Origin: Escherichia phage vB_EcoP_IMEP8
Direction: 5' to 3' (one strand)
Sequence record: NC_070993.1
Length of the DNA stretch: 64,000 nucleotides
Positions 40,884-63,275 of the stretch are shown piece after piece (the stretch's first letter is position 1; each line of letters opens with the position of its first letter). The notes beneath the pieces are model-generated. The model worked only from the letters and a program-made list of their open reading frames with translations. It ran no database searches and was not told the DNA's origin. The translations under genes were made by a program, and so were the position numbers.

Positions 40884-42086
40884 TTAGTAGTTTACAACAG
40901 TGCCATCATTCAGGGTAAGACTGTTAATCTGCAACACACGACCTAACTGACGATCACTAATTGGTGCGTTCCATCCAGAGCGGTAGAAGTTACGACCGCA
41001 GAAGAAAACAATTACATTGCTTGCTACAGTCGAACCGTTTTCAGGATGCTTGATGTTAGCGATGTAATAACCACGACGCAGATTACGACGGGTAATAGGT
41101 GTGATTTCTAATCCTTGTTCTTCAACCTGCATTGTTTCAGGAACAGGTTCCGATGATTCTTCAACAACCGGCTCAGGGCTTTCCGCTGATAATGCGTAAT
41201 CCTCATCACCTGCTGGTGAAAATGTTTCTTCTACTTCTTCCACAGGAAGTTCGTATGCAACACGATAGTCAGGCTCAACACCAGAGAAGCTCTTAACAAA
41301 CTCAACAATGTTGTGAGTGTAAGTTTCCAGAGTTGTACCAGTCAGTCCCGGAGCAGTGTTAACTTCCAGAACCCAAGCATTAGTATTTTTACTAATCAGA
41401 TCAACAGCCCCGAAGTTCAAACCCAGAGCAGATACAGCTTTGTGAGCTTGAATCAGAACTTGATCAGGAGGTGCATCTTGGAAGTTTGAGGAATAAACCC
41501 AACCAGTGTGATGATTACGAATATCTTCACGATAGGTTGACAGATCGCGGTAACCGTTACGACGAATTTTCTTCTGAACGTAAGTGATAACGCCTTCGAA
41601 CACATGAACACGCCACTCACGACGTGGGCCTTGAATACCTTTGGTATATAGAGGGGCATCCGCAACACCTTCTGTCGGAAGACGAACAGTGATTCCCTCA
41701 CCAGAGTGACCAGTTAATGTTGCACGTTCGTAAACAATTTCGTTCTGGTTCCAGTTCTGAGCCACTTCACGATCGAAGGTGTATTCAACAGTTTTGACTT
41801 CAGCTAAACGCAGTGCGTTAAATGCTGCAACTTTGTTAGCTGCTCGGTTCAAGGCAACCACAGAGTTCAACACAGTTGCGCCACCAAAGAAAGAATCGTT
41901 GTATCGACGGTTTCCGTAGTTGACAACAATATCACCAACCCGAGAACGATAACGAGAACCCTCTGATACCAGAGACATTACGTTAGCATTTAAGCGGAGT
42001 TCCTGAATCTTAGTGTTGATAGCAGAAGTAAGTTCACGAACTGAATCAGAAGGGCCATAAGGAAGAACACGGATACGAGTAGTCAT
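40884..42086 (-). CDS. ATP-grasp ligase (RimK/glutathione-synthetase-like) with acidic linker and C-terminal extension
   Basis: Motif LGLNFGAVDLISKNTNAWVLEVNTAPGL matches ATP-grasp C-terminal signature. Confidence 0.7.
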   Translation of the reverse strand: MTTRIRVLPYGPSDSVRELTSAINTKIQELRLNANVMSLVSEGSRYRSRVGDIVVNYGNRRYNDSFFGGATVLNSVVALNRAANKVAAFNALRLAEVKTVEYTFDREVAQNWNQNEIVYERATLTGHSGEGITVRLPTEGVADAPLYTKGIQGPRREWRVHVFEGVITYVQKKIRRNGYRDLSTYREDIRNHHTGWVYSSNFQDAPPDQVLIQAHKAVSALGLNFGAVDLISKNTNAWVLEVNTAPGLTGTTLETYTHNIVEFVKSFSGVEPDYRVAYELPVEEVEETFSPAGDEDYALSAESPEPVVEESSEPVPETMQVEEQGLEITPITRRNLRRGYYIANIKHPENGSTVASNVIVFFCGRNFYRSGWNAPISDRQLGRVLQINSLTLNDGTVVNY

Positions 42087-42088
42087 TG

Positions 42089-42313
42089 TTAGATACCTTT
42101 AAGTTTAAGAATTTCGTTACGAGTTTTTTGAATCTGAGCTTCAATTTCGAAGTAGTCATTGAACGCATCGTTCTCTACTTCATCGGATGGTGCATCAATC
42201 AGACCGAAAGCAAACGGATACAGCTTTCGCTGCTCCGTTACTAATTCGATATGAACTCCTATGTAATACTGTAGGAGAGTAATCTTCGGTTTCTTAGGAA
42301 CCAGATTTGACAT
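42089..42313 (-). CDS. hypothetical protein (74 aa)
   Basis: ORF only. Confidence 0.4.
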   Translation of the reverse strand: MSNLVPKKPKITLLQYYIGVHIELVTEQRKLYPFAFGLIDAPSDEVENDAFNDYFEIEAQIQKTRNEILKLKGI

Positions 42314-42527
42314 GAGGTTCTACCTTAATGCCTTTGATTTTTACATAATCAGCAAGTACGTTATTGATCACCGTTGGGAAAGGAACCTCAACCTGTGTTT
42401 CAAGTACTTGACCAATACCAGCTTGCATCCACTTCTGGATTGCACGAAGGTTATCACATCCTGTGCTCGTCATCGGGATACGTCGAGTAGTTACAACGTT
42501 ATCCAGCATCATCTTACGAATTTCCAT
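42294..42527 (-). CDS. hypothetical protein (77 aa)
   Basis: ORF only. Confidence 0.4.
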   Translation of the reverse strand: MEIRKMMLDNVVTTRRIPMTSTGCDNLRAIQKWMQAGIGQVLETQVEVPFPTVINNVLADYVKIKGIKVEPHVKSGS

Positions 42528-42529
42528 AC

Positions 42530-44560
42530 TTAACCTCTATTCAATGAACATTTAGGAGAATTACAATAAACTTGATTCATAGAACCAAGCGTACAACTTT
42601 CAGCATCGCGCCACGGAATCTGCTTAAAACACTCTGAACAGTAGCCGAGGGTTGACCACATTGCTTTGGTGAAGTCAGTGCTTCGGTTTCCGTCGAAGCT
42701 GACGACAGTTTTGCGGAGAGCTGTTCGTGATTCAGGAAACACACCTGCTTTCTCAGCAGGTTCCTCCTTTTTTGGCTTAGTTGAGATTGCAAAAATACTG
42801 TTGCTACGTTTCTCAACATAAGCATCAACAACATCCTCCAGAGTGATGCCTGTCTGTTTCGCTGAGGAAGGTAATATAGTCATACGACCAATCATTTCTT
42901 CAGTTACACGTAAAGCAAACTCAGGACGACGGGCGTTTGTTGTATCTGTTGCTTTAATCCATACATAACCATCTTTGATCGTAGCATTAGATACTTTCTT
43001 CTTTACTTCTACAGCGCAGACTTTACAGATATCTTCACCACGAAGACGACTAAGTTCATCATCGAACTCATTCTCTGTTTTAACTTCACCGCAGATTTCA
43101 CAAACACCAATAGGAGTTTCCTCCTCTTCTTCCTCTTTAGGTTTAGTCAAACCTTCCAGACATTCAGGATGCCAGTAGCACTGATATGCGAAGACTGCTT
43201 TAGGTGCATCCTTCCAATCAATGTGCTTGTCACAACCACCACAATCACCATGAGAATGAGCTTCCCAGAATTTACGAGTGATAGTAACGCCATTCTTGTT
43301 GACGAAACTATCATTCATATCAAAAGGGATATCATCATCGAAGTCAGCAGTAGTTGACTCAGGCTCCTTTTTCTCCAGAGATGGGTCAACAAAACGACCT
43401 GCTGTGATCACTAAACGGACCATAGCATTGACTTCGGAGATGCAGGATACTGTCCCACGGTAAACAATTTTAGGGTCTTTCAGTGCATCCTGATAAGCCT
43501 TAATGTCTACATTATGAACATCACCTTCGATATACTCTTGAGACTTCTCATCGTAGATATAACCGATCATCTTACCACGAGAAGGAACAGCACCAGCAGT
43601 TGCATAAGGAACAAACTCATGCGGAGTGATTTCCACAGTCATATCGCGGCGAATATCAATGTTTCGATCGCTTGCGATTTTGTTTTGACTTACCACTGCG
43701 TTTCTTCGACGAACGTCTGCCGCTGTCACTCCCGGCTTCGTGTCGTAAGGATTGCTTGTATTGCTTTTTGAGGAACTTTGATAGTTGCTTTGGCTGTAGT
43801 TGTTCGAGTAGTAATTGCCCCAACGATTGATTACCGTAAAAACCGGAAGCTCGTGGGCGACCTCTTCAACCAGAGTCATGCTGTTGTTTGACATATCAAA
43901 GATATACTCTGTACCAACTTTACATTCAAAATGCTCGTCAATACGATTCTTGTGAGATCTAGAACGCTTCAGAATCCACATCAACATATCTTCTTCAGAA
44001 GCACCAAACCAATCTCTATTACAGCGTGCGAGATGGAAAGGACGCTCTTCATTACGGATGATATGAAGACGGTTATCAGAAGCATCATGCCAGATTAAGG
44101 TGAAAGCACCATCCAGCTTTTGAATAGTCTCTGCTGCACCAATAGTGTTAATAGAGTGGCAGATGTTCTCACTGTCTACCTCGAAGTTTTTGCTGTCAGG
44201 TAACAGGTCTTGGTCCATCAAGGTTCCGTTATGAACCAGAGTGATGTTACCATGTTGGAAAGGATGGGCGTTCTTGGCGTTAACTGCACCTTTCGTTGCA
44301 TGACGGCTGTGACCAACAATCCATGAAGGTGCTACAGTGTAAGCTGTTTCACCAGTGGTGTGTTTCTTGTACTCATCTTGTAGGATGAATGCGAAAGAAG
44401 GAAGAGCTTCTTTATAAGTGAAGACTTCCTTAGTGCTTTTACGCTGACCAAAGATACCGGAGGAATGTTGTCCTCGGAATACTCCAGCATAAAAGAGTTG
44501 GTTGAATACGTCTAAATCAGTGCTTGACAGATTACCGCCAGCTAATACGATGCCACAAAT
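42530..44560 (-). CDS. class-II glutamine amidotransferase / Ntn-hydrolase domain protein with C-terminal Zn-ribbon region; apparent ATT start
   Basis: In-frame extension upstream of ORF-track start encodes CGIVLAGG...FRGQHSSGIFG...GHSRHATKG; Cys codon lies two codons after an in-frame TAG; SD AGGTGGA precedes ATT; C-terminal CxxC pairs. Confidence 0.65.
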   Translation of the reverse strand: MCGIVLAGGNLSSTDLDVFNQLFYAGVFRGQHSSGIFGQRKSTKEVFTYKEALPSFAFILQDEYKKHTTGETAYTVAPSWIVGHSRHATKGAVNAKNAHPFQHGNITLVHNGTLMDQDLLPDSKNFEVDSENICHSINTIGAAETIQKLDGAFTLIWHDASDNRLHIIRNEERPFHLARCNRDWFGASEEDMLMWILKRSRSHKNRIDEHFECKVGTEYIFDMSNNSMTLVEEVAHELPVFTVINRWGNYYSNNYSQSNYQSSSKSNTSNPYDTKPGVTAADVRRRNAVVSQNKIASDRNIDIRRDMTVEITPHEFVPYATAGAVPSRGKMIGYIYDEKSQEYIEGDVHNVDIKAYQDALKDPKIVYRGTVSCISEVNAMVRLVITAGRFVDPSLEKKEPESTTADFDDDIPFDMNDSFVNKNGVTITRKFWEAHSHGDCGGCDKHIDWKDAPKAVFAYQCYWHPECLEGLTKPKEEEEEETPIGVCEICGEVKTENEFDDELSRLRGEDICKVCAVEVKKKVSNATIKDGYVWIKATDTTNARRPEFALRVTEEMIGRMTILPSSAKQTGITLEDVVDAYVEKRSNSIFAISTKPKKEEPAEKAGVFPESRTALRKTVVSFDGNRSTDFTKAMWSTLGYCSECFKQIPWRDAESCTLGSMNQVYCNSPKCSLNRG

Positions 44561-44639
44561 TTTCTAATCCACCTGAAGGGTAAACCCTTTCATCTAATTA
44601 ACCTTTAAATTGTGCCCCTTTACCAGAGGCACCCATTGA

Positions 44640-45743
44640 TTACAGCGCTTGCTCTAACTGATTTTCCAAATGATCTGGAATGTATCCTGTGATGTTGTTA
44701 TCACTGTGACCTGACTCACGAAGTAAGTCAAAAATAGCACGGATACGTTGTTCTGGAGCGTGTCTTACTTGAGATAGGTCAGTTGTACGAAGCATAACCA
44801 GAATCTCTTGGTACAAGTTGTTAGCGTTCCCTCGGACATAACCAAGGAATCCGTAGAAGTCTGACATAAGACGTAAGTCAACAAGAACCTCTCCGTTGGA
44901 GTTGGTTCGACGTAAACGAATACGACCAGACTGTTCTACTTCATGAGAACGACAATACAAAACATCACGGGCCATACAATACCCGGAATGCAAATCCGAT
45001 TCATCCAGATTGTAATCCAGAGGAAGGTAAGGAAGCATTGGGGCAAATCGTACAGTATTTAAGTGCTCGATAAACTGATCATTGCTCATATCTGCGTTAT
45101 CTAGAGCCAGCTTCTTCAACATCAAGAAGCGGTTAACCAGATTGAGAAGTTGACCACGTTTCCACTTAGGCTCACTGATACGGAACTCAATTGAACCGTA
45201 TTGGGCAAGTGGCAGAAGGTTCAGGGATGTATACTTATCCCATGAGCGAACCAGACGATTGAAGAACTCTTCATCGTCGTAGTTAAATGCGTCAGAGGCA
45301 TTCATTACCTGTGCTTGTACCACTGCAAAAGCAGGGCAGAAGTTGCTACGGTAACGATGGTAGCCTGAACACTTGAACAACATCTTTTCATAGAAGGTCC
45401 AAGCGAGAATGGTTTTCTTGAGGATATTACTATCAGCATCCCTCATATCCATATGAACGTGAGTAGAGCAACGCCAAGTCCCCTCGGCGTGCGATTCAGC
45501 TACTGCTTCACTCAGGTTGTTGATAGCGTCTAACAACTCCTGTCCGTTGTAAGGCCGTGAACATACCATTTCACAACCATTACGCAGGGAACCATCCTCT
45601 GTACAATCCCACATATCTGCTTCGATATGGTCGGAACCTTCGAGTTCAAGTTCAATACCGACACCGCACTGAAGTGCAATTGAACTGTGCGCCTCAGTTA
45701 AACGACCTTCTCGATATCCAAAAGTTTGCGCTACAGTTGTCAT
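44640..45743 (-). CDS. hypothetical enzyme, possibly amidoligase (glutamine-synthetase-like) family
   Basis: Acidic GVGIELELEGS and STHVHMD motifs plus gene context; weak. Confidence 0.35.
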   Translation of the reverse strand: MTTVAQTFGYREGRLTEAHSSIALQCGVGIELELEGSDHIEADMWDCTEDGSLRNGCEMVCSRPYNGQELLDAINNLSEAVAESHAEGTWRCSTHVHMDMRDADSNILKKTILAWTFYEKMLFKCSGYHRYRSNFCPAFAVVQAQVMNASDAFNYDDEEFFNRLVRSWDKYTSLNLLPLAQYGSIEFRISEPKWKRGQLLNLVNRFLMLKKLALDNADMSNDQFIEHLNTVRFAPMLPYLPLDYNLDESDLHSGYCMARDVLYCRSHEVEQSGRIRLRRTNSNGEVLVDLRLMSDFYGFLGYVRGNANNLYQEILVMLRTTDLSQVRHAPEQRIRAIFDLLRESGHSDNNITGYIPDHLENQLEQAL

Positions 45744-46357
45744 AACGAATCCACCAACGTAATATTATAATTGCTAAGGTTTTCAGAAATGTGATGAAAG
45801 TGTTCCAGAAGTCGCATCGGTTGCTGACCGTAAGAATCACGAGGTGCTTCCAGATCTACTTGTCCTACCAGTGCACCTTTATAATGCACCTTACCATCTG
45901 TAGGATTGATGTAAATATAACGAGTAACCAATCCATCAAATTCAGGATTGAACAGACTGTAAACCATTTCACCAGAGATAGAACGACCAATCCCCGGAGC
46001 GTTTCGAATCTTGTTACCCATCAAACCCTTCGCTCTCTGGCGAACAGGGTTGATATGAGTCCAGCTTACAGTGTTACCATTATGGAACAGATAACCAACA
46101 TCAGGTGATTCAAGAATCAAGGTTGGGTCGAACACCGGAATATTCATCGTAGTGTTTCGGAGATTCCCATGCTCGTTCTTGTACCACTGCTCTACAACAA
46201 AATACAGAGCCTGTTCTGCTTCGTGTGAGAAGTCATCGCTGCGGAAGTTACCGCTCTGCTCAACACCAATCACAAAACACGGAAGGTTGATATTGCCTGC
46301 TCGTTTAGCAATCCATGTACCATTATAGTAATGAGAAAAATCAGCTACTAAGCTCAC
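45740..46357 (-). CDS. hypothetical protein (205 aa)
   Basis: ORF, 4-nt overlap with neighbour. Confidence 0.45.
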   Translation of the reverse strand: MSLVADFSHYYNGTWIAKRAGNINLPCFVIGVEQSGNFRSDDFSHEAEQALYFVVEQWYKNEHGNLRNTTMNIPVFDPTLILESPDVGYLFHNGNTVSWTHINPVRQRAKGLMGNKIRNAPGIGRSISGEMVYSLFNPEFDGLVTRYIYINPTDGKVHYKGALVGQVDLEAPRDSYGQQPMRLLEHFHHISENLSNYNITLVDSL

Positions 46358-46366
46358 GATAACCTC

Positions 46367-47173
46367 TTATGCTACCTGAAGGAGTTTGATCTGCTGGTCA
46401 GCTTCTTTAACGTTGTTTCCGTTAATGATTTCATGAAGCTTCTCAATCGGAAGGCGAGAGTGCAACGCCATCAGAGTGGACATATCACACTGCTGAACAA
46501 CCTTGTCAACCTGATCGTAAACAAACTTACGGTTTTCACGATCACTAATCCAGAAGTTAGACAGCGAACGGTATTCGATACCATAGTCTTTATAACGGAT
46601 TGCAGATGCTTTACCGTAGAGTTCTTTACGGCGAGTATCTTTGTCCATAATTACTGCTGGGAGGGATAGGAAGTAGTCACACAGCACACCAAGCATCATC
46701 TGAGTTTGCAGAGTGATATCCAAAGCACCAACTACGCCAAGATGTACGTGACCACCGGCAGTACGAAGCCCCTTGTTCTGAGAAGTTGGGGATGGGTTTT
46801 TCTGACCAGTGAAAGCGTTGAAGTCAGGAGTGCATCCAAAGATGAACGCTGATTCATTAAAGGTCTTCATCTCTTCTTCGGTGAAGATGTGAGAGCTGAC
46901 ACCCGGAGCTGTTTCCATGTCCAGTTTGTTCAGGACGCTGTTGGTGAGATCAATACCACGTTGCATGTTGTCGTTAAACGCTTCAAAGCCGCTCTGTGGG
47001 TCAATATCAAACTCAGCCAGTACGTTGTCCTCTTGAAGACGAACATCCTTAGCCAGAGTGATCTTGTCGTCCTTAGAACAGCCTAATAGACCAGCTACAG
47101 AGGTGATGATACCGTTGCTAGTACGAACGAACATTTCAGGGTCAGAGCCGATAAGGAATTTGCGCTTAGTCAT
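46367..47173 (-). CDS. hypothetical protein (268 aa), possible amidoligase-like paralog
   Basis: FLIGSDPEMF and GGHVHLG motifs; weak. Confidence 0.35.
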   Translation of the reverse strand: MTKRKFLIGSDPEMFVRTSNGIITSVAGLLGCSKDDKITLAKDVRLQEDNVLAEFDIDPQSGFEAFNDNMQRGIDLTNSVLNKLDMETAPGVSSHIFTEEEMKTFNESAFIFGCTPDFNAFTGQKNPSPTSQNKGLRTAGGHVHLGVVGALDITLQTQMMLGVLCDYFLSLPAVIMDKDTRRKELYGKASAIRYKDYGIEYRSLSNFWISDRENRKFVYDQVDKVVQQCDMSTLMALHSRLPIEKLHEIINGNNVKEADQQIKLLQVA

Positions 47174-48137
47174 TGTAATACTCCACTAGTTCAGAAAAGA
47201 GAGATGAGATTGTGTTACCAACTTCTTCAGGAGTAAGACCGGAGTCTGCTCCAGTTCTTTGAATCAGTCGGGCTGTAAAGTTTTGTACTGTAATGTTTCC
47301 CAACTTGTCGTCTATTGCTTCACGTTTGTGACCATAACAGTTGGACCAGAGTCTTAACCACTCTGACATTGTTTCATACTCGTCCGGGTCTTGATCTTTA
47401 GCACGAGCAAATCTTCGTAAGGCATCTTGGTTATGGTTACGAACATAACCATTCTCGTTGTCGCCAACACCGAAGGGGTTTTGAACCCATACTTGTTTCG
47501 TGTATTCATCAGAGTCAACAACCAAAGGAAGGAATGCTGCTGCTGACATATTGTTATTAACAACAATAGAGGTGCTCTCACTACTCCCATTGGCTCTTCC
47601 TCGTTGAGACCATCCACCGAAGAAGTCACGACCCAACCCAGCTAACACTAGAGCGATTCCGATGCGTTTACGCTTCAGCCACTCTTCCCTGTCTTCAATT
47701 CCTTCTGCTAGGAAATCCATTCCACGATATTGCCCTTCCAGAATACTACGAAAGAGCATAAGTCCTGTGAAGATTTGATCTGCTGGATGCTCACGGAGGT
47801 TGACAGCTACACTATTCGCTGAAGTGATTGTAAATACGTCACGATAGCAAGACATGGAGTTCATAATGTCCGCTGTTTCAACCAAGTTCTTTTCAATATC
47901 AGATGCAACATGACCATGAAAAGAGTGAGTCCAGTAATTCAACATCTCCAGTTGCAAGTTGATGTCACGGTTGAAGCGTCTATAACGCCCCTCTTCCGTG
48001 ATAACTTCGCCATCAATATCATTTACGCATTGGCCTTGCATATAGTTGTGGATACCGAAGCACCCACGACCTAAGAACTTCTGTTCCCCTAAGTCTTGTT
48101 GAAGGTTTAGAGGTACGATCGTTGTGGAGATTGACAT
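47166..48137 (-). CDS. hypothetical protein (323 aa)
   Basis: ORF only. Confidence 0.45.
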   Translation of the reverse strand: MSISTTIVPLNLQQDLGEQKFLGRGCFGIHNYMQGQCVNDIDGEVITEEGRYRRFNRDINLQLEMLNYWTHSFHGHVASDIEKNLVETADIMNSMSCYRDVFTITSANSVAVNLREHPADQIFTGLMLFRSILEGQYRGMDFLAEGIEDREEWLKRKRIGIALVLAGLGRDFFGGWSQRGRANGSSESTSIVVNNNMSAAAFLPLVVDSDEYTKQVWVQNPFGVGDNENGYVRNHNQDALRRFARAKDQDPDEYETMSEWLRLWSNCYGHKREAIDDKLGNITVQNFTARLIQRTGADSGLTPEEVGNTISSLFSELVEYYND

Positions 48138-48147
48138 AACTAACCTT

Positions 48148-49344
48148 TTATTTTCCTAAAAATAATCCGCTCATAACACCATCCCACTCAGAGGAAGGAA
48201 TCACTGAATACTCCGAACTTTGGTCCAGAGTCCCACTACTAAATCGCTGAACAATGTTGTAGATATTGAACAGGTCTTTAGCCTCGGCACGAATGCCGTA
48301 GATTAGCCTGTTAGCTGTTTTCTCATTTTTAGACACGCGACGGGTAAAGTTAACCAAAAGGTTGTCACCTTTAAGTATCTCTGACCCATCTTTTACTAGA
48401 TCGGGGTGCATCACTGGCAAGAACATTGAGTTGTTAACTCGCAATTCTGCTGTTTCATCATTCTCATAATGAATCCACTTAAAGTCTTCATCACGGAAGT
48501 GACCACATCCATCTCTGTACGACTGCTGACGCCAAGGCACTTGAAATGCTTCAGCATATTTATCAGCCATGCCGACTGTAAACAGCGACGCTGGGAAGAT
48601 ACAAGCATCCCAATCGTTACCAACCAGAGTTGCTTTCGTTTCCCCCAAGAGATTGGTGTAAGTACTAACCATTCGGGAATAAACGTAAGCCTGAAGGATT
48701 GTCCACCCCTCAACCAACCATTTATGAAGGAAGATTTCAACCTGACTCTCTTCATCTTCGCAATAGAAGGTTCGATCTAACATCAAATAGAACAGACAAC
48801 GATCAGCAGGAACATTCTCAGTTGCTACACCCATAAAACCTTTTTCGTGCCAGCGTAAACAGGAGGGACGATCTTTGTCCACAAATGCTTCCATAGCTTC
48901 CAGTACAGCACGAGGTGTGGTTCGATGCTCAGGGTTTTTGTCGTTCCAACGTTCGATGTTATTTTTAAGCTCGCCTTCGTAATCAATAGCACCCCAACCT
49001 AAAGCTGCGGATACAGGTTTTTCATCACGCCAACGTCTAAAACCTAACATCTTCATGTGAGTTCCGGAGTTCCAGATATGCTTGATTTTACACATATCCA
49101 TCTCTCGGCTTAACAGGAACTCTTCCCCATCAGCACTACGAACGTTAGCTTCTTCATGCCACACTCGAACGTGCATATTCCACCCATGAGTTGCCTCATA
49201 CATGTTCGGGTCGAAGTAGTCATCATATTCGTCATCGTCTTCATCAACGCCACCGTTATAGTTGCGAAGCTGAAGGAACCCATAACAAGGAGGGTGGACC
49301 GTTAAAACATTACCTTCAGTATCTTCTAATGTTACTGGAAACAT
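48148..49344 (-). CDS. hypothetical protein (398 aa)
   Basis: ORF only. Confidence 0.45.
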   Translation of the reverse strand: MFPVTLEDTEGNVLTVHPPCYGFLQLRNYNGGVDEDDDEYDDYFDPNMYEATHGWNMHVRVWHEEANVRSADGEEFLLSREMDMCKIKHIWNSGTHMKMLGFRRWRDEKPVSAALGWGAIDYEGELKNNIERWNDKNPEHRTTPRAVLEAMEAFVDKDRPSCLRWHEKGFMGVATENVPADRCLFYLMLDRTFYCEDEESQVEIFLHKWLVEGWTILQAYVYSRMVSTYTNLLGETKATLVGNDWDACIFPASLFTVGMADKYAEAFQVPWRQQSYRDGCGHFRDEDFKWIHYENDETAELRVNNSMFLPVMHPDLVKDGSEILKGDNLLVNFTRRVSKNEKTANRLIYGIRAEAKDLFNIYNIVQRFSSGTLDQSSEYSVIPSSEWDGVMSGLFLGK

Positions 49345-50800: not shown

Positions 50801-51031
50801 AGGGGAAATTCCTTAAAAAGTTATGGCTGCGTAGAGGGAATTCCCTACGCAAATTGGGCCGCCCACAGAGAGGCGTCATAGTACTAAAAGGAGGAGAGAA
50901 GAGGGCTTATTTAGCTACCTTTTTCTGTCCGTTTACGAACCAGATAATTGAACCATCAGGCTGTCGTTGACCGAAGCCTTTCTGATTAATCATATCGTCA
51001 TAAGAATATGCTTTACGTCTCATTTATTTTC

Positions 51032-51274
51032 CTATGGAGTTAAGATAATTTCAGCCTTACTAAACTTCTCACCAACTTCAAGAGTATCAGCAACAGGACG
51101 GGGCACACCTGTACCCAAACAAACAGCCCTTCGATACCCTCCAGTCACAGGCATCATCAAATAGATGATCTGATTATCATCTTCTTTTAAAGTGAAGATA
51201 TCAGAGATCGATAGATCTTTAACAAAGAGTTTCTTTTCTTCTTCATGATGAACTTTGATATGTATTGTGCTCAT
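51032..51274 (-). CDS. small early protein, paralog family A member
   Basis: Shared L..L..GD.F...(hydrophobic)...L..G pattern with 6 other approx 80-aa ORFs. Confidence 0.5.
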   Translation of the reverse strand: MSTIHIKVHHEEEKKLFVKDLSISDIFTLKEDDNQIIYLMMPVTGGYRRAVCLGTGVPRPVADTLEVGEKFSKAEIILTP

Positions 51275-51276
51275 AC

Positions 51277-51522
51277 CTACTCCTGAACCACTGACATACG
51301 AATCATTTCTACCTGATCATCAAGACCTTTAACAGATAATACACCTGTGAAAAGGTTTACCACAGGAACCCAACCACTGGCTATACGGATGTTACCAGAA
51401 GCATTTTCAACCCTCATGTAATACTGAGGAGAGGCGCTTCCGTTCTGAACCATAAAAGGGTTTCCGGGAATGATTGTTTCCAATCGTACCGTATTATCCT
51501 TTTTCTTTGGGATGATTTTCAT
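51277..51522 (-). CDS. small early protein, paralog family A member
   Basis: As above. Confidence 0.5.
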   Translation of the reverse strand: MKIIPKKKDNTVRLETIIPGNPFMVQNGSASPQYYMRVENASGNIRIASGWVPVVNLFTGVLSVKGLDDQVEMIRMSVVQE

Positions 51523-51761
51523 TAGACATTACTCACTAAAAGTTCGGCTGATACAGGGACAACTTGGCACGTAGAATCTGGTGCTGTTACAAGTCCGTCA
51601 TGTAGACGAAGGGCTAGAGTACGTCCACTATTTACGGATACATTGGGTGTGCCGTGAACAAAACCTTTAACATAAAGTGTATCACTATCTGGATGCTTAA
51701 ACACGGCCCCATTTTCTAAGGACTCAAGTGGGACACGATCCACTCTCTTTGTAATTTTCAT
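51522..51761 (-). CDS. small early protein, paralog family A member
   Basis: As above. Confidence 0.5.
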   Translation of the reverse strand: MKITKRVDRVPLESLENGAVFKHPDSDTLYVKGFVHGTPNVSVNSGRTLALRLHDGLVTAPDSTCQVVPVSAELLVSNV

Positions 51762-52012
51762 TTAGAACCCTTAATAACGTTGGCTTCGACTTTAACAGGG
51801 ATAACAGTAATACCATCAACCGGACCACTCAGATTACCATCTTCCAGCCTGACACACACGACTCGATCTCGTGCAACTTCTACCCAATTAGTAGATGCCG
51901 CAGTACAAACCATATGGATTGGACCATTCTCTTCCAGCCGGAAGGTATCGCCCTTCTTCAGAGTGCGGAGCTTTGCTGTCTTGATGGTTTTGTTCAACTC
52001 GTTAACTTTCAT
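51758..52012 (-). CDS. small early protein, paralog family A member
   Basis: As above. Confidence 0.5.
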   Translation of the reverse strand: MKVNELNKTIKTAKLRTLKKGDTFRLEENGPIHMVCTAASTNWVEVARDRVVCVRLEDGNLSGPVDGITVIPVKVEANVIKGSK

Positions 52013-52020
52013 ATTGATTC

Positions 52021-52332
52021 CTATTTAAGTTTGAGGCTAATATTCAGGTGCATACATGCCCTGTTCTGTACAGCAGCATAACTTCTACCGAGCATGTCAG
52101 CCATTCTCTGAATAGACATGAACCCAGCATTACGGATAAGGAACTGGTCTTCTTCTTTAGACCACTTAACTCGGATTACAGCTCTAGAGATACCAAACTT
52201 AGTGCAAGCCGTATTAACTGCATTCTCCGTTACATTCATAATCTGAGCAACCTCTTGAACAGAGTACTCTTTGATTAGTCTCCGAAGATTTTCAATCTGC
52301 ATCGGAGTCCATATAGTTCTTCGAGCTTTCAT
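52021..52332 (-). CDS. DNA-binding protein with two tandem HTH-like repeats
   Basis: Internal repeat WTPMQIENLRRL...VQEVAQIMNVTENAV / WSKEEDQFLIRN...SIQRMADMLGRSYAAV. Confidence 0.5.
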   Translation of the reverse strand: MKARRTIWTPMQIENLRRLIKEYSVQEVAQIMNVTENAVNTACTKFGISRAVIRVKWSKEEDQFLIRNAGFMSIQRMADMLGRSYAAVQNRACMHLNISLKLK

Positions 52333-52826
52333 ACATCCTCCAATTAAACATTTATATAAGACTTTCTTAGATAAAGATTCAATAAAATAGGGGGAGGGGA
52401 CGAATCCTCCCTTATCCTATTAATTAATATTGCATGTAAGATCTAACAGTCGGTTGCCTTTGTAGGAATAAGCGTTATGCTCACCCAGCACTAAACTCCC
52501 GCCCCCTTAGTGGGCTGGGTTATTAAAGGGTAACGCCCTTATGGGCTAGTTACGTGAATGTTAGTTTGATAGGAGATCTGAAGTCCTATCTCAAAGGACT
52601 CTCGTAAGAATCCTTCACGATAAGCTCTTAATACACCAAGCCATGTAAGAGAAACACTCTCTTAGTTAACTCTGCTTTAGCTCTGTAATAAGCCTTAGAA
52701 CCTAACAGGCGGCGTTTAACAAAGAACTTAATGTCATTGCTAACATCTTGTATTAAACGTTCCTGTACAGCTTCTGAGGAGCTATTAATCGAATCAATTA
52801 ACACCTTTGTAGATGTGTAATTCATA

Positions 52827-53126
52827 TCACCACTCCTTACCGGTTGTAGTCGTAGAGCCACCACACCACAACGCTGTATCAATCACAACATTATCTGGCG
52901 TAGACTTCTCTTCGTTGATAGAAGGGTTAGCATTAGAGCAGGTTGCTCCGTTCCAGCGCATATCAATCTCACCAGAAGGAACCTTCTCGCCCTTATGCCA
53001 GCGAGACACACAAATACCATCCACTGCTACTGCACACCATCCATCAGGACGGCTCTGTACGCAGCCTGTAAGGGCCACACAGACGATGAAAATACATGTT
53101 AAGGATATTACACCACCCCAACTCAT
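52827..53126 (-). CDS. Cys-rich lipoprotein (candidate superinfection-exclusion or envelope-targeting protein)
   Basis: Signal peptide with lipobox ALTGC; several Cys in mature part. Confidence 0.5.
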   Translation of the reverse strand: MSWGGVISLTCIFIVCVALTGCVQSRPDGWCAVAVDGICVSRWHKGEKVPSGEIDMRWNGATCSNANPSINEEKSTPDNVVIDTALWCGGSTTTTGKEW

Positions 53127-53402
53127 AACTATCTCCTATTTGATTTGGCGCACCGTGTAGGATTCCAACCTACAACCCATTTCTTAGAAGGAAATTGCTC
53201 TCTGCAATTGAGCTAACGGCGCAGAATCATTTAGATCATATCTCGCTTGGTGATATGACCACATGTTTTACATCGAAGTATATAACGAGTTCCTGTGTCT
53301 TCTATTTTACCGAACTCATCATACACATTTAAACGAATCTCTTTGATTGTCTCCCACTTGTGAATATGGAAGAGGTATTTAAACCACTTGAACATATCAA
53401 CC

Positions 53403-53654
53403 TCAAGCACAAGCAGGGAGTGTGATGATTTTATGCTTACCGTCAAACTCGCTAAATAAACCCAAGAATGTAGGACTGTAAGTACCAGTACAAACAAACT
53501 CATCAAACAATGCGTTATAGCTAGGCTTAATCTTCCAAGCCCATACATAACCCATCTTGTCAATTGCAATGTAACGAGTGTTCAGAGGAACAGTCATCAT
53601 CACATCATCAACTTCGATCACTTTAGTAATTGGTGCAGCTTGGAAGTTTTTCAT
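53403..53654 (-). CDS. hypothetical protein (83 aa)
   Basis: ORF only. Confidence 0.4.
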   Translation of the reverse strand: MKNFQAAPITKVIEVDDVMMTVPLNTRYIAIDKMGYVWAWKIKPSYNALFDEFVCTGTYSPTFLGLFSEFDGKHKIITLPACA

Positions 53655-53866
53655 ACTTTACCTTTGATGAAAATGTCATTACCACAGACACAGCATGAAC
53701 GAACAACAGTAGCGCCACGCTGAACGATACGAACCTCTTCCTTAACCAGATTAACACGAGCACCACAGCAAGGAGAGTTAACATAAGAGTAACCAGCTTG
53801 TGTATTCTTGATTGTTTGCTTAGACATTTGAGCTTCCTATTGTTGGTTTAAGTAAGAGATATATCT

Positions 53867-54067
53867 CTATTTCAAGATTGACTTAATAATTTTAGACATG
53901 ACCCGATTAATAAACTTATTAGCAAACCTACTTCCTAGATTATCTAGAGGCCCTCTAGCCTTTCTCGCTGGAGTAGACAGCTTCTTATGTGTGGCAGCTT
54001 CACGGTCAGCAATTTGTGCTTCCAGTAGCTTAATCTTGAGTTCTTCTTCTCTTTCCTTGAAAGTCAT
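53867..54067 (-). CDS. hypothetical basic protein (66 aa)
   Basis: ORF only. Confidence 0.4.
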   Translation of the reverse strand: MTFKEREEELKIKLLEAQIADREAATHKKLSTPARKARGPLDNLGSRFANKFINRVMSKIIKSILK

Positions 54068-54516
54068 AAGGCCCCCATATAGATAAAAGTTCCCCCTACT
54101 AAGTCTATAACCTTAGTCAATAGGGACACTACACCTAGGATACCTAACACCCATAGTGTAATCTTAGCCAATACCCCGTGACTGCCTTTACGGATACATC
54201 CAGAATTGACTACGAATGCAACAACACCACCGATAGAACCTGCTGTGGTGTACCAGTTATTTGGTTTATGACCATATAGTTGTTCAAGTTTCTTCTGGAA
54301 CTTGAAAGTAGTCACGATTAGGATAACTTGTAAGCCAAATGCAGCCCATACAGTCAGTAGGTATTGTTTAAACCCATCAAGTGATTGAATCCCATCAACA
54401 TCAATCCTGTCAACATAAACATTAACCCCTATAAGGACTAAGAATAAGAAGATGATAGGTAAGAAAGATTCTTTAAAATAATCATCGCCAGCTACAAAAT
54501 CATTTTTAGTTTCCAT
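54064..54516 (-). CDS. integral membrane protein (about 4 TM helices)
   Basis: Four hydrophobic segments. Confidence 0.5.
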   Translation of the reverse strand: METKNDFVAGDDYFKESFLPIIFLFLVLIGVNVYVDRIDVDGIQSLDGFKQYLLTVWAAFGLQVILIVTTFKFQKKLEQLYGHKPNNWYTTAGSIGGVVAFVVNSGCIRKGSHGVLAKITLWVLGILGVVSLLTKVIDLVGGTFIYMGAL

Positions 54517-54599
54517 GATATGCCTCTATTTAATAAAGTAATTAAAGGTGATTTACCTAAAACAACAAAGGCCACCCGATTGGGCAGCCTTTCTTTTAT

Positions 54600-54800
54600 T
54601 CAAAGAGTATGTATTTGCAGCTCTCGAAGTTTCATAGCCACATAAGAGTCAGAAGAAATAAGCCACTTATGAAAGACTACCTTAGCACCAGTTCGAGAAC
54701 AACCTAACTCTTGTGCAAGCTTACTGAACACATCCCCGTCTTCTGCAAAGAAGAAAGGAGCACAACGACAGATCGCTTTTTGTTCTTTGTTAGTTACCAT
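54600..54800 (-). CDS. hypothetical protein (internal start MVTNKEQK)
   Basis: ORF; start adjusted because a 46-aa upstream ORF overlaps the ORF-track start. Confidence 0.35.
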   Translation of the reverse strand: MVTNKEQKAICRCAPFFFAEDGDVFSKLAQELGCSRTGAKVVFHKWLISSDSYVAMKLRELQIHTL

Positions 54801-55228
54801 ATGTCCAATTGCCTTGCTTGTTACGGATGGCTGACATTGCATGAACCCAGAAGCCTTCCAGTTTCAGAGCACCGTTAGCTACTGCATCCATACGTTCAGG
54901 GCGGTTCATACGTTTGGTTGATACTTTCATACCTATCTCTCTTTGTTAGTGGAGGCATTATTGCCAGTTGATATAGCGGATGACTCTTACAATAGAGCCA
55001 CCTACTCTACAAACTGGTGAAGACTCCCTACCCCTAGGAAGTCTCCTGAATCCCAAACCAATATGTACCCCTACATATCAGAAAGTCTTTCGAAAATTAA
55101 CAGGTTTTAGTCTAACACCGGATGTTCGAGCAAGCTCTCCCTAGCGGTGTGGCATATGCCTGATTAATAAGTTAATGAGGAACACCCTCACATAGCCCTC
55201 TGATAAACACAAGGGCTATAAGCCGGTG

Positions 55229-55447
55229 TTACTTTTGAGATAAACACAGATCAGGACGTGGCATAACAGTAGTTGATAGGCCGAAGACTTCAACAGAACC
55301 GCTGTTCAGGTTAGCGGCTTTACGCAGACCATCAGGAGTTTTATCTTCTAGCATCAGCCAGAAACGTTTATCGTAAGAGAAAACATCACCACCCTTAACA
55401 TCTTCTGCATTTGCATATTTAGGATAATCAACTACTTTAATTTCCAC
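55229..55447 (-). CDS. small early protein, paralog family A member
   Basis: Shared pattern. Confidence 0.45.
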   Translation of the reverse strand: MEIKVVDYPKYANAEDVKGGDVFSYDKRFWLMLEDKTPDGLRKAANLNSGSVEVFGLSTTVMPRPDLCLSQK

Positions 55448-55451
55448 TTAA

Positions 55452-55778
55452 TTACTCCTTACTTTCTTTAGTAATTGCATTTAACATAAGGTTCATTTTG
55501 TATACCCCTTTCTGAATCAAAGGCAAGAACTCATCCCCTAAGTCAGAAGACAGTAAACTCAAACTTCCAGTCTTGATGCCACGACATGCTGACTCTACCT
55601 CATCCGGCAACAATGCCATATTAAACCACGGAGATTTAATTTCTACTGTAAATCCGGGATTGTATCGGCTCTCACTATGACCGAACTCTAGATATGTAAC
55701 ACCAGAACAATGTTTCATTTGAGCACGAATTGTTACGGTTGGTTTGCACATCACAAAAGAAGAAACAGACATATTCAC
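55452..55778 (-). CDS. hypothetical protein (108 aa)
   Basis: ORF only. Confidence 0.4.
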   Translation of the reverse strand: MNMSVSSFVMCKPTVTIRAQMKHCSGVTYLEFGHSESRYNPGFTVEIKSPWFNMALLPDEVESACRGIKTGSLSLLSSDLGDEFLPLIQKGVYKMNLMLNAITKESKE

Positions 55779-56026
55779 TTCCGATTGGTAATTACTGCAT
55801 CATGGATAACTGAAACAGGTAAGTTTGAATCTAGCTTCATTACTTGATTGGTGCTTAAACTAAGAACTACACAACCATTCCGAAGATCAGTCTCTGACAC
55901 ATGTGGTGTATATAACTGAACGATCATATAATAATCAATACATGTTGCCTTAACTTGGAACACATCACCAAGTTTCAAATCACCCACACGCAACTCTTTA
56001 GCTTTCATCTCAAGATCAATCTTCAT
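55775..56026 (-). CDS. small early protein, paralog family A member
   Basis: Shared pattern. Confidence 0.5.
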   Translation of the reverse strand: MKIDLEMKAKELRVGDLKLGDVFQVKATCIDYYMIVQLYTPHVSETDLRNGCVVLSLSTNQVMKLDSNLPVSVIHDAVITNRK

Positions 56027-56273
56027 CTTTAGCCTCTATGTTGGTTATGTGGAGATCACTGCGTACTTGGCAGATCTCATCTCGGTTGATACCGGTCAGT
56101 GTTCCGGATACCACATTAACACATTTAACATGATAGTCAGATGTTGAATCTGTTCTGATATAAAGAATGCCTCGGAAAGAAAACAAAACTCCAGGCTTCA
56201 TGTTAGTTAAGCGAATCGTTGTATGATCGTGCTTAATATTAACTTTCACTGTTAATCTCCTGCTGCTTAGCAA
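56016..56273 (-). CDS. small early protein, paralog family A member
   Basis: Shared pattern. Confidence 0.5.
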   Translation of the reverse strand: MLSSRRLTVKVNIKHDHTTIRLTNMKPGVLFSFRGILYIRTDSTSDYHVKCVNVVSGTLTGINRDEICQVRSDLHITNIEAKDED

Positions 56274-56535
56274 TAGCTACTCGCAAGTCTTCATTAGCAC
56301 GAGCAAGGCGCAATACTTCATGGTTGAGATTCTGAAGACGCTTATTTCTGTCCTCTACTTGCATAATAAGATCGTTGAGTGTTGCTTTAACTTTCTCATT
56401 ATACATCTCATCTACTCGGACTAGAGATTTATACATTCTCTCCCAGCTTGCTGCTTTGTTTCTGAGAACAATAAATCCTATAACGCTGATAGTTAAACAG
56501 CTTACAAAAAGGAATTTATATACTTCTAAAGTCAT
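56239..56535 (-). CDS. membrane-anchored coiled-coil protein (98 aa)
   Basis: N-terminal TM FLFVSCLTISVIGFIVL then helical charged region. Confidence 0.45.
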   Translation of the reverse strand: MTLEVYKFLFVSCLTISVIGFIVLRNKAASWERMYKSLVRVDEMYNEKVKATLNDLIMQVEDRNKRLQNLNHEVLRLARANEDLRVAIAKQQEINSES

Positions 56536-56734
56536 ACTATTTACCCTTTATCAGAGATTAAAAGTAATATTATTTAAGTAAGTTATATTTAGTAAACTTA
56601 TTTTCTAAGAAATTTTCAAAGGGTCTATATACAGAGCATTACCCATAGTCCCAGAATACTACCATCTTTTTCAATAAATTTACTAAGTGGTTGGTTTATA
56701 AAGGAATTTAGTTTGTCAAATCTGGCACTAGTAA

Positions 56735-60793: not shown

Positions 60794-61702
60794 TTATGCT
60801 GCCTGACGTGCCGCCATAATCTCAGCCGCTTTACGCAATACTTCCTCTTCTTCTGCTTTCGCAGCTTGCTCGGTACGGGTAGCAACCGTTGAAGAGATAC
60901 GACCGCGCAGACTTTCTAACTTCTCCTGAATAGCCGAAATAGTCTTTTCCATTTCATCAGCGTATGAATCGAGTGATTCCAGCTCCTTGCTTGATGCGTT
61001 CATCAGATAATCGTCAGAGATCGCTACCGTTGATGCCGTTACTTTCTTGATGAGTGAATCAAAGGACTTTTTAACTTTCCCCACGTCTTCACTTAAGGCA
61101 ATAGTGTTGTCACTGGTAGCGCCATTGCGCTCATCAGCCAACAATTTGACTTCAATACGGATTGCATTCAAGCGTTCAACCAAAGCGTAAATATCCTGAT
61201 TAAAATCTTCCTTGTTTTTCGCCGGAATTTGCAGATGGGCAGCCACGTTGTCATTGCAACCTTTGAAGAAGTTCGGATTATCCACTTCAATTTCACGACC
61301 TAATGCAAAGTTTTCGAAAGCATTTGACCAGCGAGCGCGATTTTGTTCCATTTTGGCCTTAATTTGCGCTTCTTTCGCATCTTCTTTCGCTTTCGCTTCA
61401 CCTTCCAGATTAATCCACTTTTTACGCCCATTTGCCGCATCGGTGTTAAACTTGATCGGAGTCAGGAAAGTAATTGCAGTGGCAATTACATCCATATCGC
61501 GGAAACGTTCGGTTAACAGAAAATCAACTGCCGACTGCAATACGTCCAGCTTTTTACCGTTACTGCGGAAGTGCTGCAAGTGCCCTAACAGAAAATTAGA
61601 AACATCTTGTTTAATCGCCGCGTTATTACTGCGAATGTTGTTAGCCAGTGCGTTAAAACCAGATTCTTTTACCAGATTGAAAATTTTAGCCATGATATTC
61701 AC
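60794..61702 (-). CDS. first gene of minus-strand early block, helical protein of unknown function (302 aa)
   Basis: SD AAAGGTGAA before ATG 61702; preceded by 2.3 kb non-coding region. Confidence 0.55.
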   Translation of the reverse strand: MNIMAKIFNLVKESGFNALANNIRSNNAAIKQDVSNFLLGHLQHFRSNGKKLDVLQSAVDFLLTERFRDMDVIATAITFLTPIKFNTDAANGRKKWINLEGEAKAKEDAKEAQIKAKMEQNRARWSNAFENFALGREIEVDNPNFFKGCNDNVAAHLQIPAKNKEDFNQDIYALVERLNAIRIEVKLLADERNGATSDNTIALSEDVGKVKKSFDSLIKKVTASTVAISDDYLMNASSKELESLDSYADEMEKTISAIQEKLESLRGRISSTVATRTEQAAKAEEEEVLRKAAEIMAARQAA

Positions 61703-62514: not shown

Positions 62515-63275
62515 TTATTAAAGAGCGGTAAATCTGTCAGCGTGCTTTCTCACGCTACGCAACTGTAAGCCGTTGTTTCGCTTTTCACTTAAGCGGTGAT
62601 TTGCCTAGTGAGTGCTCATTATGGACCATGATGTTTTTGCTGTCAATCACTTTTTTAATCTTTTTCGTCGTTCCCGCTATTGGGAGGATATATCAACCAG
62701 CTTTATTTGATTGAAGATTAAGCGATGAGGCTTAAACTTATGATCCATATTGTTAAAGAGCGGTGCTTCTTATTGCTTCCGTTAACGTTGTTTTGTTAAC
62801 TTGTGGTTAGTATGGACTACCTTAACCACGTTTGCAACCTTTTTTATCATCTTCTTTTATTTTCTATCCCTCTTTCTCGCTTGAATCTATGCGAAAGGGC
62901 AAGATGATAAATTTTTAAAGAGCGAGCGGCTCCCATAACACCGCTTGATAATCAGTTAACCTACGATTATTCAGGGGCATGGTATCCGTCTGCCTACGTC
63001 TGACTTGCTTCACTCACTAGGGAGTTACTTGAGCGGTCATCTTGTCTTTCTAAGCTCATTATAGTTCAGGCTTTCCGGTTGTCAATACTCTTTTTAAGAA
63101 TATTTTCACTTTCTAGCCTGATTTTTAAAGAGCGGGGCAATTTCTTGCCTTGTATGTTTTACATCGTACCCGATAGAAATCAGTATACGCGAGCTTTCAG
63201 GAAGTGCAATAGGGTAAAGCAAAATATTTTAAACTTTTTCACTATAGGAAGGTAAAAGAGCGGGCGCACGTGATA
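62515..63275. repeat. iteron-like array: five dispersed copies of TTTAAAGAGCGG-type motif
   Basis: Copies near 62519, 62764, 62925, 63134, 63256 in ORF-free region. Confidence 0.6.
63068..63095 (-). promoter_or_regulatory. near-consensus sigma70-type promoter on minus strand (TTGACA-N16-TATAAT)
   Basis: Plus-strand TGTCAA at 63090-63095 and ATTATA at 63068-63073 give consensus -35 and -10 hexamers directed leftward. Confidence 0.5.

Follow-up and report, generated by a model that had tools for sequence, protein, structure and literature searches.

Seven small early-region genes of Escherichia phage vB_EcoP_IMEP8 belong to a widespread phage protein superfamily with a predicted SH3-like fold

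Introduction

Why does Escherichia phage vB_EcoP_IMEP8 keep a whole set of small genes of similar length in one arm of its genome, and do these genes share an ancestor? We address this question for a stretch of 64,000 nucleotides (nt) of the phage DNA (sequence record NC_070993.1), referred to here as the window, and specifically for seven open reading frames (ORFs) of about 80 amino acids (aa) between positions 51032 and 56273. An initial annotation had regarded them as an expanded family of at least seven paralogous early proteins that might act in host takeover or counter-defence. On the basis of profile comparisons, the seven ORFs are indeed paralogs, and they represent a superfamily that extends far beyond this phage group; a role as independent binding modules is the tentative reading that we develop below.

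Seven homologous genes

All seven ORFs exist where the initial annotation had placed them, on the minus strand. The following lines give for each ORF its PHROG profile and, where listed, its match to a broad hidden Markov model (HMM) of the family, built from 128 distant representatives with paralog 4 as the sole window sequence, as well as the ratio of nonsynonymous to synonymous substitution rates (dN/dS) and the aa identity to relatives.

51032–51274, minus strand: paralog 1, 80 aa, most divergent of the seven, phiEco32 gp95 type; phrog_12612 (E 3.8e-39), broad HMM E 1e-4; GGAG Shine–Dalgarno motif; dN/dS 0.18–0.20, merely 54% identity to Bas90/phiEco32
51277–51522, minus strand: paralog 2, 81 aa, gp96 type; phrog_7431 (E 2.4e-31) with a cross-match to phrog_8365 (6e-4), broad HMM 2.6e-16; dN/dS 0.19, 98% identity to Bas90
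51522–51761, minus strand: paralog 3, 79 aa, gp97 type, its start sharing 4 nt with the stop of paralog 4; phrog_7832 (E 6.6e-17), broad HMM 9e-14; dN/dS 0.24, 65% identity to Bas90
51758–52012, minus strand: paralog 4, 84 aa, the modelled member, 8 nt downstream of a D5-like regulator gene; phrog_7832/8365
55229–55447, minus strand: paralog 5, 72 aa, GTG start, gp113 type; phrog_6570 (E 9.8e-32); AAGGAG Shine–Dalgarno motif; dN/dS 0.07
55775–56026, minus strand: paralog 6, 83 aa, gp114 type; phrog_9955 (E 1.8e-42) with cross-matches to 8365, 12612, 7431, 16423 and 7832; dN/dS 0.10–0.13, 98% identity to Bas90
56016–56249, minus strand: paralog 7, 77 aa from GTG 56249, gp115 type; phrog_16423, broad HMM 1.6e-13; dN/dS ~0.3, 68% identity to relatives

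As judged from the sequences, all seven are real genes under purifying selection: a Shine–Dalgarno motif precedes each of them, and dN/dS against the Bas90 and phiEco32 orthologues lies between 0.07 and 0.32 throughout. The four genes of the left block are in tandem with junctions of +2, -1, and -4 nt, in agreement with the close spacing of 0–4 nt described at the outset. Only the extent of paralog 7 had to be corrected. The gene is real, but it most likely begins at GTG 56249, 24 nt downstream of the TTG at 56273 from which it had been read, since an AGGAG Shine–Dalgarno motif lies 8–12 nt upstream of the GTG, the resulting N-terminus has the family-type MKV, and the PHROG register fits this start (residues 9–85 of the long form align to profile positions 1–78).

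The similarity between the seven proteins had been noticed by eye, and a comparison with shuffled controls had been proposed as its check. When Smith–Waterman scores were compared with those of 300 shuffles, one pair stood out (paralogs 3 and 4, z 10.8), eight further pairs reached z 3–4.5, and the remainder were at noise level. Most pairs were thus no better than shuffled sequences, whereas the pair of paralogs 3 and 4 and the profile statistics described below were significant. As the similarity seen by eye was mostly below pairwise significance, profile methods were required.

For profile–profile comparisons with hhalign, 120 database homologues were clustered into orthologue groups. The profiles of the paralog 7 and paralog 5 groups aligned with P 3.3e-8, those of paralogs 6 and 2 with the paralog 3 group at P 1.4e-5 and 2.8e-5, respectively, and together with links at 2.4e-5 and 4.8e-5 these comparisons joined six members in full-length, collinear alignments. 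The remaining member, paralog 1, gave a weak result with a two-sequence profile, but with a profile of 12 orthologues it could be aligned to the other members (E 1.6e-6, probability 90%). The broad HMM matched all seven (E 1e-4 to 2e-17) from model position 1 to about 74, and it detected no further ORF in the window at E<0.05, so that the number in the window is exactly seven by this model rather than "at least seven". Each ORF also has its own PHROG (12612, 7431, 7832 twice, 6570, 9955, 16423; E 1e-17 to 1e-42), with full-length collinear cross-matches, and the seven paralog-holding groups simultaneously matched 113, 109, 102, 101, 58, 42, and 27 of 129 distant representatives. On these sequence comparisons, the seven ORFs are homologous, mostly at the profile level only.

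A superfamily shared by unrelated phages

The scope of the family outside the window had been underestimated. A HMMER search of 1.84 billion representatives returned 617 clusters (at 50% identity) with E 1e-3 or better, nearly all of them proteins of 67–88 aa that were matched end to end. Matches of 988, 504, and 1475 aa were rejected as spurious, being NHL, Ig-like, or other beta-rich repeat proteins. In PHROGs, the members are kept as separate families (7832, 7431, 6570, 9955, 16423, and 12612, with 8365, 10911, and 34455 as further relatives), all labelled "unknown function", and in Pfam there is no family for the seven paralogs or for the 129 sampled members. We conclude that these separate PHROGs, at least seven in number, are one superfamily with a predicted common fold, no Pfam entry, and no solved structure.

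Several members are found in well-known phages. By HMM, N4 gp21 (E 1e-16), PaP3 ORF65 (E 5e-10), and LUZ24 gp7 (E 5e-15) belong to the same superfamily, as stand-alone proteins of the same size, and so do gp110, gp112, gp131, and gp133 of Salmonella phage 7-11 (E 4e-14 to 2e-4). N4 gp21 lies in a region that we take to be of the middle class, and a tblastn search with it found only N4 and near-identical relatives, all annotated as hypothetical. Other small early proteins of N4 were rejected as members, including gp8, presumably the clamp-loader inhibitor, as only gp21 matches the HMM. No member was found among 269 ORFs of T7, and when plasmids were searched by tblastn with paralog 4 as the query, there was no match. 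In one protein (P0243), two family domains are joined to about 230 C-terminal residues that match neither Pfam nor PHROG and hence give no functional clue.

The obvious functional precedent would otherwise have been phi32_gp79, a non-structural RNA polymerase-binding regulator of phiEco32 that has a similar size (82 aa) and comes from the same phage group. It was rejected as a family member, as its sequence is unlike that of the family and no match to the family HMM was obtained (1023 ORFs scanned); it is also a middle gene (PMC8948821). A search of the literature for the phiEco32 locus tags of the family members found no paper.

The number of copies varies widely. Seven are present in the window, 10 in Bas90, and nine each in phiEco32 and SU10, with differing subtypes absent or replaced, about four in Salmonella phage 7-11, and one each in PaP3, LUZ24, and the first 14 kb of N4. 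The longest arrays were found in unrelated metagenomic phage contigs:

L015, 6838–12819: 61-kb contig with 32% GC, found in two samples; 16 member genes with 17 domains within 6 kb
L014, 6269–9003: 21-kb contig with 50% GC; 10 consecutive genes with repeated 4-nt (-4) overlaps
L013, 7698–10228: contig with 58% GC; four genes, with a NADAR-domain gene about 400 nt downstream of the array

The family is therefore not specific to Kuravirus, the genus to which the window belongs (see below), but a superfamily of several hundred clusters whose arrays in unrelated phages reach 16 genes. Within arrays, the median identity between copies is only 26–30%; the arrays are ancient and not recent amplifications. 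In genomes with limited space, arrays of 7–16 old, diverged copies point to sustained selection for diversity on one scaffold. Two full family domains are fused in one protein in at least ten independent lineages, and the L014 and L015 arrays contain further fusions.

Comparison with close relatives gives a patchy picture. While paralogs 2 and 6 are 98% identical to their Bas90 counterparts, the neighboring paralogs 1, 3, and 7 have only 54%, 65%, and 68% identity, with saturated synonymous divergence (dS) and dN/dS of about 0.2–0.3. Such a difference between adjacent genes, at saturated dS and a dN/dS of about 0.2, implies that whole alleles were exchanged rather than evolved in place. Together with the variable copy number and the single copies in PaP3, LUZ24, and N4, this marks the genes as accessory and exchangeable one by one. 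Members of the gp104 and gp109 types, which phiEco32, Bas90, and SU10 possess, are absent from the window, and the D5-like regulator gene is separated from the tRNA gene by about 800 nt in the window (52333–53145) versus about 1550 nt in Bas90 (L001 10452–12004).

A predicted SH3-like barrel with a conserved core

With an alignment of 126 family sequences, AlphaFold2 modelled paralog 4 as five strands with no helix of note (predicted local distance difference test, pLDDT, 88.4; predicted template modelling score 0.76). The family fold is accordingly predicted to be a five-strand SH3-like beta-barrel of the Tudor/KOW type, modelled for paralog 4 and extended to five other paralogs through the alignment. 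When paralog 1 was modelled separately from an alignment of its ten orthologues alone, the pLDDT was only 44.8, too low for a statement on its fold.

A Foldseek search of the paralog 4 model against the full PDB gave nothing at E 1e-3 or better, the leading neighbors being EF-P, eIF5A, Tudor, and PWWP domains at a template modelling score (TM) of about 0.5, and a PDB sequence search with the family profile gave nothing below E 0.03. The fold class of the modelled member is clear, yet as both searches came back empty, no solved protein is a specific relative. Among predicted viral structures (BFVD), the matches were small uncharacterised phage proteins, including N4 gp21 and PaP3 ORF65 and others from phages of Erwinia, Serratia, Dickeya, Proteus, Vibrio, Klebsiella, Yersinia, and Salmonella; for the members in well-known phages named above, E was 2–3e-4 and TM 0.65–0.73.

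The pattern (K/R)L..L..GD.F followed by V...L..G, which had first drawn attention to the ORFs, is roughly right and can now be given as L15..L18..G21-D-x-F24, Y33-M34, and V54-x-L56-x-(T/D)58-G59. Across 283 sequences, the informative positions are M1, K2, I/V3, L15, L18, G21, F24, Y33, M/I34, V54, L56, T/D58, G59, L61, V70, V73, and V/L77; G21 is present in 277 and F24 in 275 of them. These positions constitute the hydrophobic core and the glycine turns G21 and G59, and there is no conserved polar cluster. Within orthologue groups, core positions are 3–5 times less variable than the rest, while positions 36–50, corresponding to the beta3–beta4 region, are hypervariable and rich in insertions and deletions. 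The window members have the core motif M-K-[IV], L15, L18, G21, F24, Y33-[MI]34, V54-x-L56-x-[TD]58-G59, and V70, from which paralog 1 strays furthest: its N-terminus reads MSTIHIK, and D replaces G ahead of I-F. Among charged residues, only the lysine at position 2 (M-K-[IV], for example at 52007–52009 of the window) is conserved; it is found in 243 of 274 family sequences, for a reason that may be structural or translational (AAA as second codon).

Despite the similar barrel, known families with this architecture differ from the phage proteins. Members of the Tudor/PWWP royal family bind methyl-lysine or methyl-arginine in a cage formed by three to four conserved aromatic residues on the surface, whereas only F24 and Y33 are conserved aromatics here, alternating with hydrophobic core positions, and no Pfam Tudor or PWWP match was obtained. 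The KOW and translation-protein SH3-like domains (EF-P, eIF5A, L2) are likewise set apart, as there was no match to KOW, EFP_N, eIF-5a, or Ribosomal_L2_C and no conserved basic loop residues. Identities to EF-P domain I, the eIF5A N-domain, the L2 C-domain, the SMN/TDRD Tudor domains, and the PSIP1 PWWP domain were 7–19%, which amounts to no sequence similarity. The phage proteins, of about 75 aa, are stand-alone and phage-specific, lack a conserved aromatic cage or KOW-type motif, and have an extra N-terminal strand (MK[IV]...) that pairs with the C-terminal strand. Isoelectric points of the seven paralogs range from 5.2 to 9.3, and neither these values nor the conservation pattern hint at an active site, at mimicry of DNA, or at a nucleic-acid-binding surface common to all.

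Genomic setting and predicted early transcription

A megablast search with positions 50900–56600 retrieved about 107 genomes of Escherichia coli and Shigella podophages with 89–95% identity at a query coverage of just 65–77%. The relatives NJ01, phiEco32, SU10, KBNP1711, and Bas90 are classified as Kuravirus within the Gordonclarkvirinae, which makes the window a Kuravirus (phiEco32-like) sequence. An N4-like affiliation was rejected, as N4 gp1–gp29 had no tblastn match in the window and the relatives belong to Kuravirus; an ORF for a giant virion RNA polymerase was not found either.

Both paralog clusters are situated in the leftward-transcribed right arm of the window. In phiEco32 and SU10, the right arm, including the homologous gene blocks, is of the early class and read from promoters for host sigma70 close to the right end, while middle and late genes depend on the phage sigma factor gp36 and its motif tAATGTAtA (PMC8948821, PMC4281155). 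The corresponding elements of the window are:

63085–63058, minus strand: sigma70-type promoter, 12/12 consensus, TTGACA-16-TATAAT
62646–62618, minus strand: sigma70-type promoter, 11/12 consensus, TTGACA-17-CATAAT
8985, 14216, and 24147, plus strand: copies of the gp36 element TAATGTATA, placed as expected for late promoters of phiEco32-like phages
24075 and 29736, minus strand: copies of TAATGTATA, placed as expected for middle promoters of phiEco32-like phages

The two sigma70-type promoters are in a non-coding spacer of about 2 kb to the right of ORF 60794–61702 and head a leftward early transcription unit that spans both paralog clusters; their position (62618–63085) agrees with that of the early promoters mapped in phiEco32 and SU10 (PMC4281155). 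The five exact copies of TAATGTATA (0.6 expected) all lie within 8985–29744, and none was found within 30–64 kb of the window. This layout fits the assignment of the paralogs to an early block and transcription of all seven by host RNA polymerase from the sigma70 promoters, the expression data being those of relatives. For the more distant PaP3, ORF65 is in the ORF57–71 set that was early by microarray, peaked 5–10 min post infection, and was insensitive to chloramphenicol (PMC4707531).

Two genes adjoining the paralogs are not family members:

52021–52332, minus strand: D5-like transcriptional regulator gene (phi32_99 homologue), phrog_323 E 2.4e-28
55452–55778, minus strand: unrelated ORF between paralogs 5 and 6, phrog_3566 (unknown function) E 7e-9, no family HMM match

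The D5-like regulator gene is immediately upstream of the four-gene cluster and occupies the same place in Bas90, phiEco32, and SU10. A tRNA-Arg(TCT) gene (53146–53222, minus strand) lies between the two clusters, and the ORF adjoining it (52827–53126, minus strand) has a lipobox-like LTGC motif and is a putative lipoprotein of the phi32_106 type. PHROG 12154 and several GenBank records (phi32_116) call ORF 56239–56535 (minus strand), to the right of paralog 7, a "DNA helicase"; at 98 aa it is far too small for a helicase, and the name looks like a propagated annotation error. Positions 40884–49344 (minus strand), which the leftward transcription unit reaches only after the paralog clusters, hold a cassette of amidoligase, GlmS-like amidotransferase, and RimK-like S6 glutaminyl transferase genes that is common to phiEco32, PaP3, LUZ24, and 7-11.

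Discussion

What could be the use of so many diverged copies of one small barrel? The answer that we favor, though with somewhat less than even confidence, is that the paralogs are independent non-enzymatic binding modules that engage different host or defence components and modulate rather than kill. The barrel would serve as the scaffold, and the variable loops and surfaces, especially the beta3–beta4 loop with its many insertions and deletions, would bind other macromolecules. Each paralog would work on its own at an early stage of infection, binding and modulating a different component of the host or of its defences, with an effect on the host that is more likely non-lethal. The repertoire would owe its composition to gene duplication, sequence divergence, and the exchange of single alleles by recombination.

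The only family member assayed so far is LUZ24 gp7, which is encoded in the early region. When 13 early proteins of LUZ24 were expressed in Pseudomonas aeruginosa, growth was inhibited only by gp4, gp6, gp9, and gp11 (PMC4635203). The lack of toxicity of gp7 speaks against a host-killing takeover function and leaves counter-defence or modulation open, and in combination with the dispensability of the genes it points to these roles rather than to host killing. In the case of PaP3 ORF65 (L008 43460–43699), the mRNA was strongly anticorrelated with the host rpoS mRNA 5 min post infection, from which an inhibition of RpoS was speculated in the transcriptome study; this is a correlation only (PMC4707531).

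That an SH3-like fold can serve in counter-defence is plausible by analogy with Nip of the SPbeta-like phage phi3T, which is expressed early, contains predicted SH3-like domains, and inhibits the TIR NADase SpbK by binding to it (PMC11984713). Nip is a Bacillus phage protein of 279 aa with two SH3-like domains and an HU-like dimerisation domain, and we do not claim homology. The genomic behavior of the family also resembles that of anti-defence clusters and of poxvirus-style "genomic accordions" in that clustered accessory genes were amplified and then diverged, as would fit an arms race. Anti-defence and anti-CRISPR clusters are composed of small, early, accessory, and rapidly exchanged genes; the known clusters mix unrelated folds, whereas here all copies use one scaffold. 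An extension of our reading that we regard as rather unlikely is a phage "repertoire" system in which one SH3-like scaffold is deployed in arrays of 4 to 16, each copy being a dedicated inhibitor or decoy for a different immunity protein or other factor of the host, with cassettes swapped between phages by recombination. If true, this would be a counter-defence toolkit built on a homologous scaffold, unlike the known mixtures of unrelated anti-defence proteins.

Several observations weigh against a role as independent binding modules. The proposed mechanism derives solely from fold, conservation pattern, and genomic behavior. A conserved core with a variable surface is typical of any small folded protein and thus does not single out a binding role. 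The closest structural neighbors are RNA-binding domains of translation factors. The natural two-domain fusions and the 4-nt gene overlaps could mean that paralogs act together. No match to any defence or anti-defence family was obtained in PADLOC (0 matches), Pfam, or NCBIfam (noise only). Finally, proteomics of an SU10 lysate detected six early proteins and no family member, a null result that is uninformative on expression of the family because the sample was a lysate concentrated with polyethylene glycol (PEG).

The foremost competing explanation, which we consider unlikely, is that the paralogs are subunits of homo- or hetero-oligomers such as dimers or rings of SH3-like barrels, with the array encoding one assembly. 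Small SH3-like and Sm-like barrels often oligomerise, and the fusions in at least ten lineages and inside L014/L015, as well as the translational coupling of array genes (-4, -1, and +2 nt in the window, repeated -4 in L014), would suit such an arrangement. However, close relatives differ in which single subtypes they have lost, gained, or replaced, and PaP3, LUZ24, and N4 manage with one copy. Array sizes from 1 to 16 together with the variable repertoires exclude a fixed hetero-oligomer, and homodimers remain compatible with them. Somewhat less probable still are binders of nucleic acids or ribosomes of the translation-protein SH3-like type (L2, EF-P, eIF5A, KOW) that tune host or phage translation or transcription, an idea suggested only by the generic structural neighbors and set against the missing family motifs and basic loop residues described above. 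We judge it improbable that the paralogs are host-shutoff proteins that each inhibit an essential host process in the manner of classical toxic early ORFans: they are probably expressed early from a host-takeover region, and many small early phage proteins act in this way (PMC4635203), but LUZ24 gp7 left the growth of P. aeruginosa unimpaired, whereas four unrelated neighbors inhibited it, and phages that are nearly identical differ in these genes, which are dispensable. A chance or compositional resemblance, or ORFs that are not genes, deserves next to no credence, as the profile statistics (P down to 3e-8, an independent HMM that finds the seven and nothing else in the window, transitive PHROG links via 129 distant sequences, and 617 clusters matched end to end) and the selection analysis exclude it, even though most pairwise alignments equal shuffled controls and the AlphaFold2 model of paralog 1 from its own shallow alignment has low confidence.

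It is chiefly among small early ORFans of phages that new host-takeover and counter-defence activities are still to be found. The family described here is unusual among such ORFans for its long tandem arrays of old, diverged copies; otherwise its members resemble small early accessory phage proteins. Tractable members exist in phiEco32 and in Bas90, a phage of the BASEL collection that can be propagated on E. coli K-12, along with N4 gp21 and LUZ24 gp7. Should the proteins turn out to be structural oligomers or RNA binders, the result would be an ordinary family annotation. If instead the targets of the independent binding modules are defence systems, the family would provide a ready panel of related inhibitors with which the evolution of specificity could be studied.

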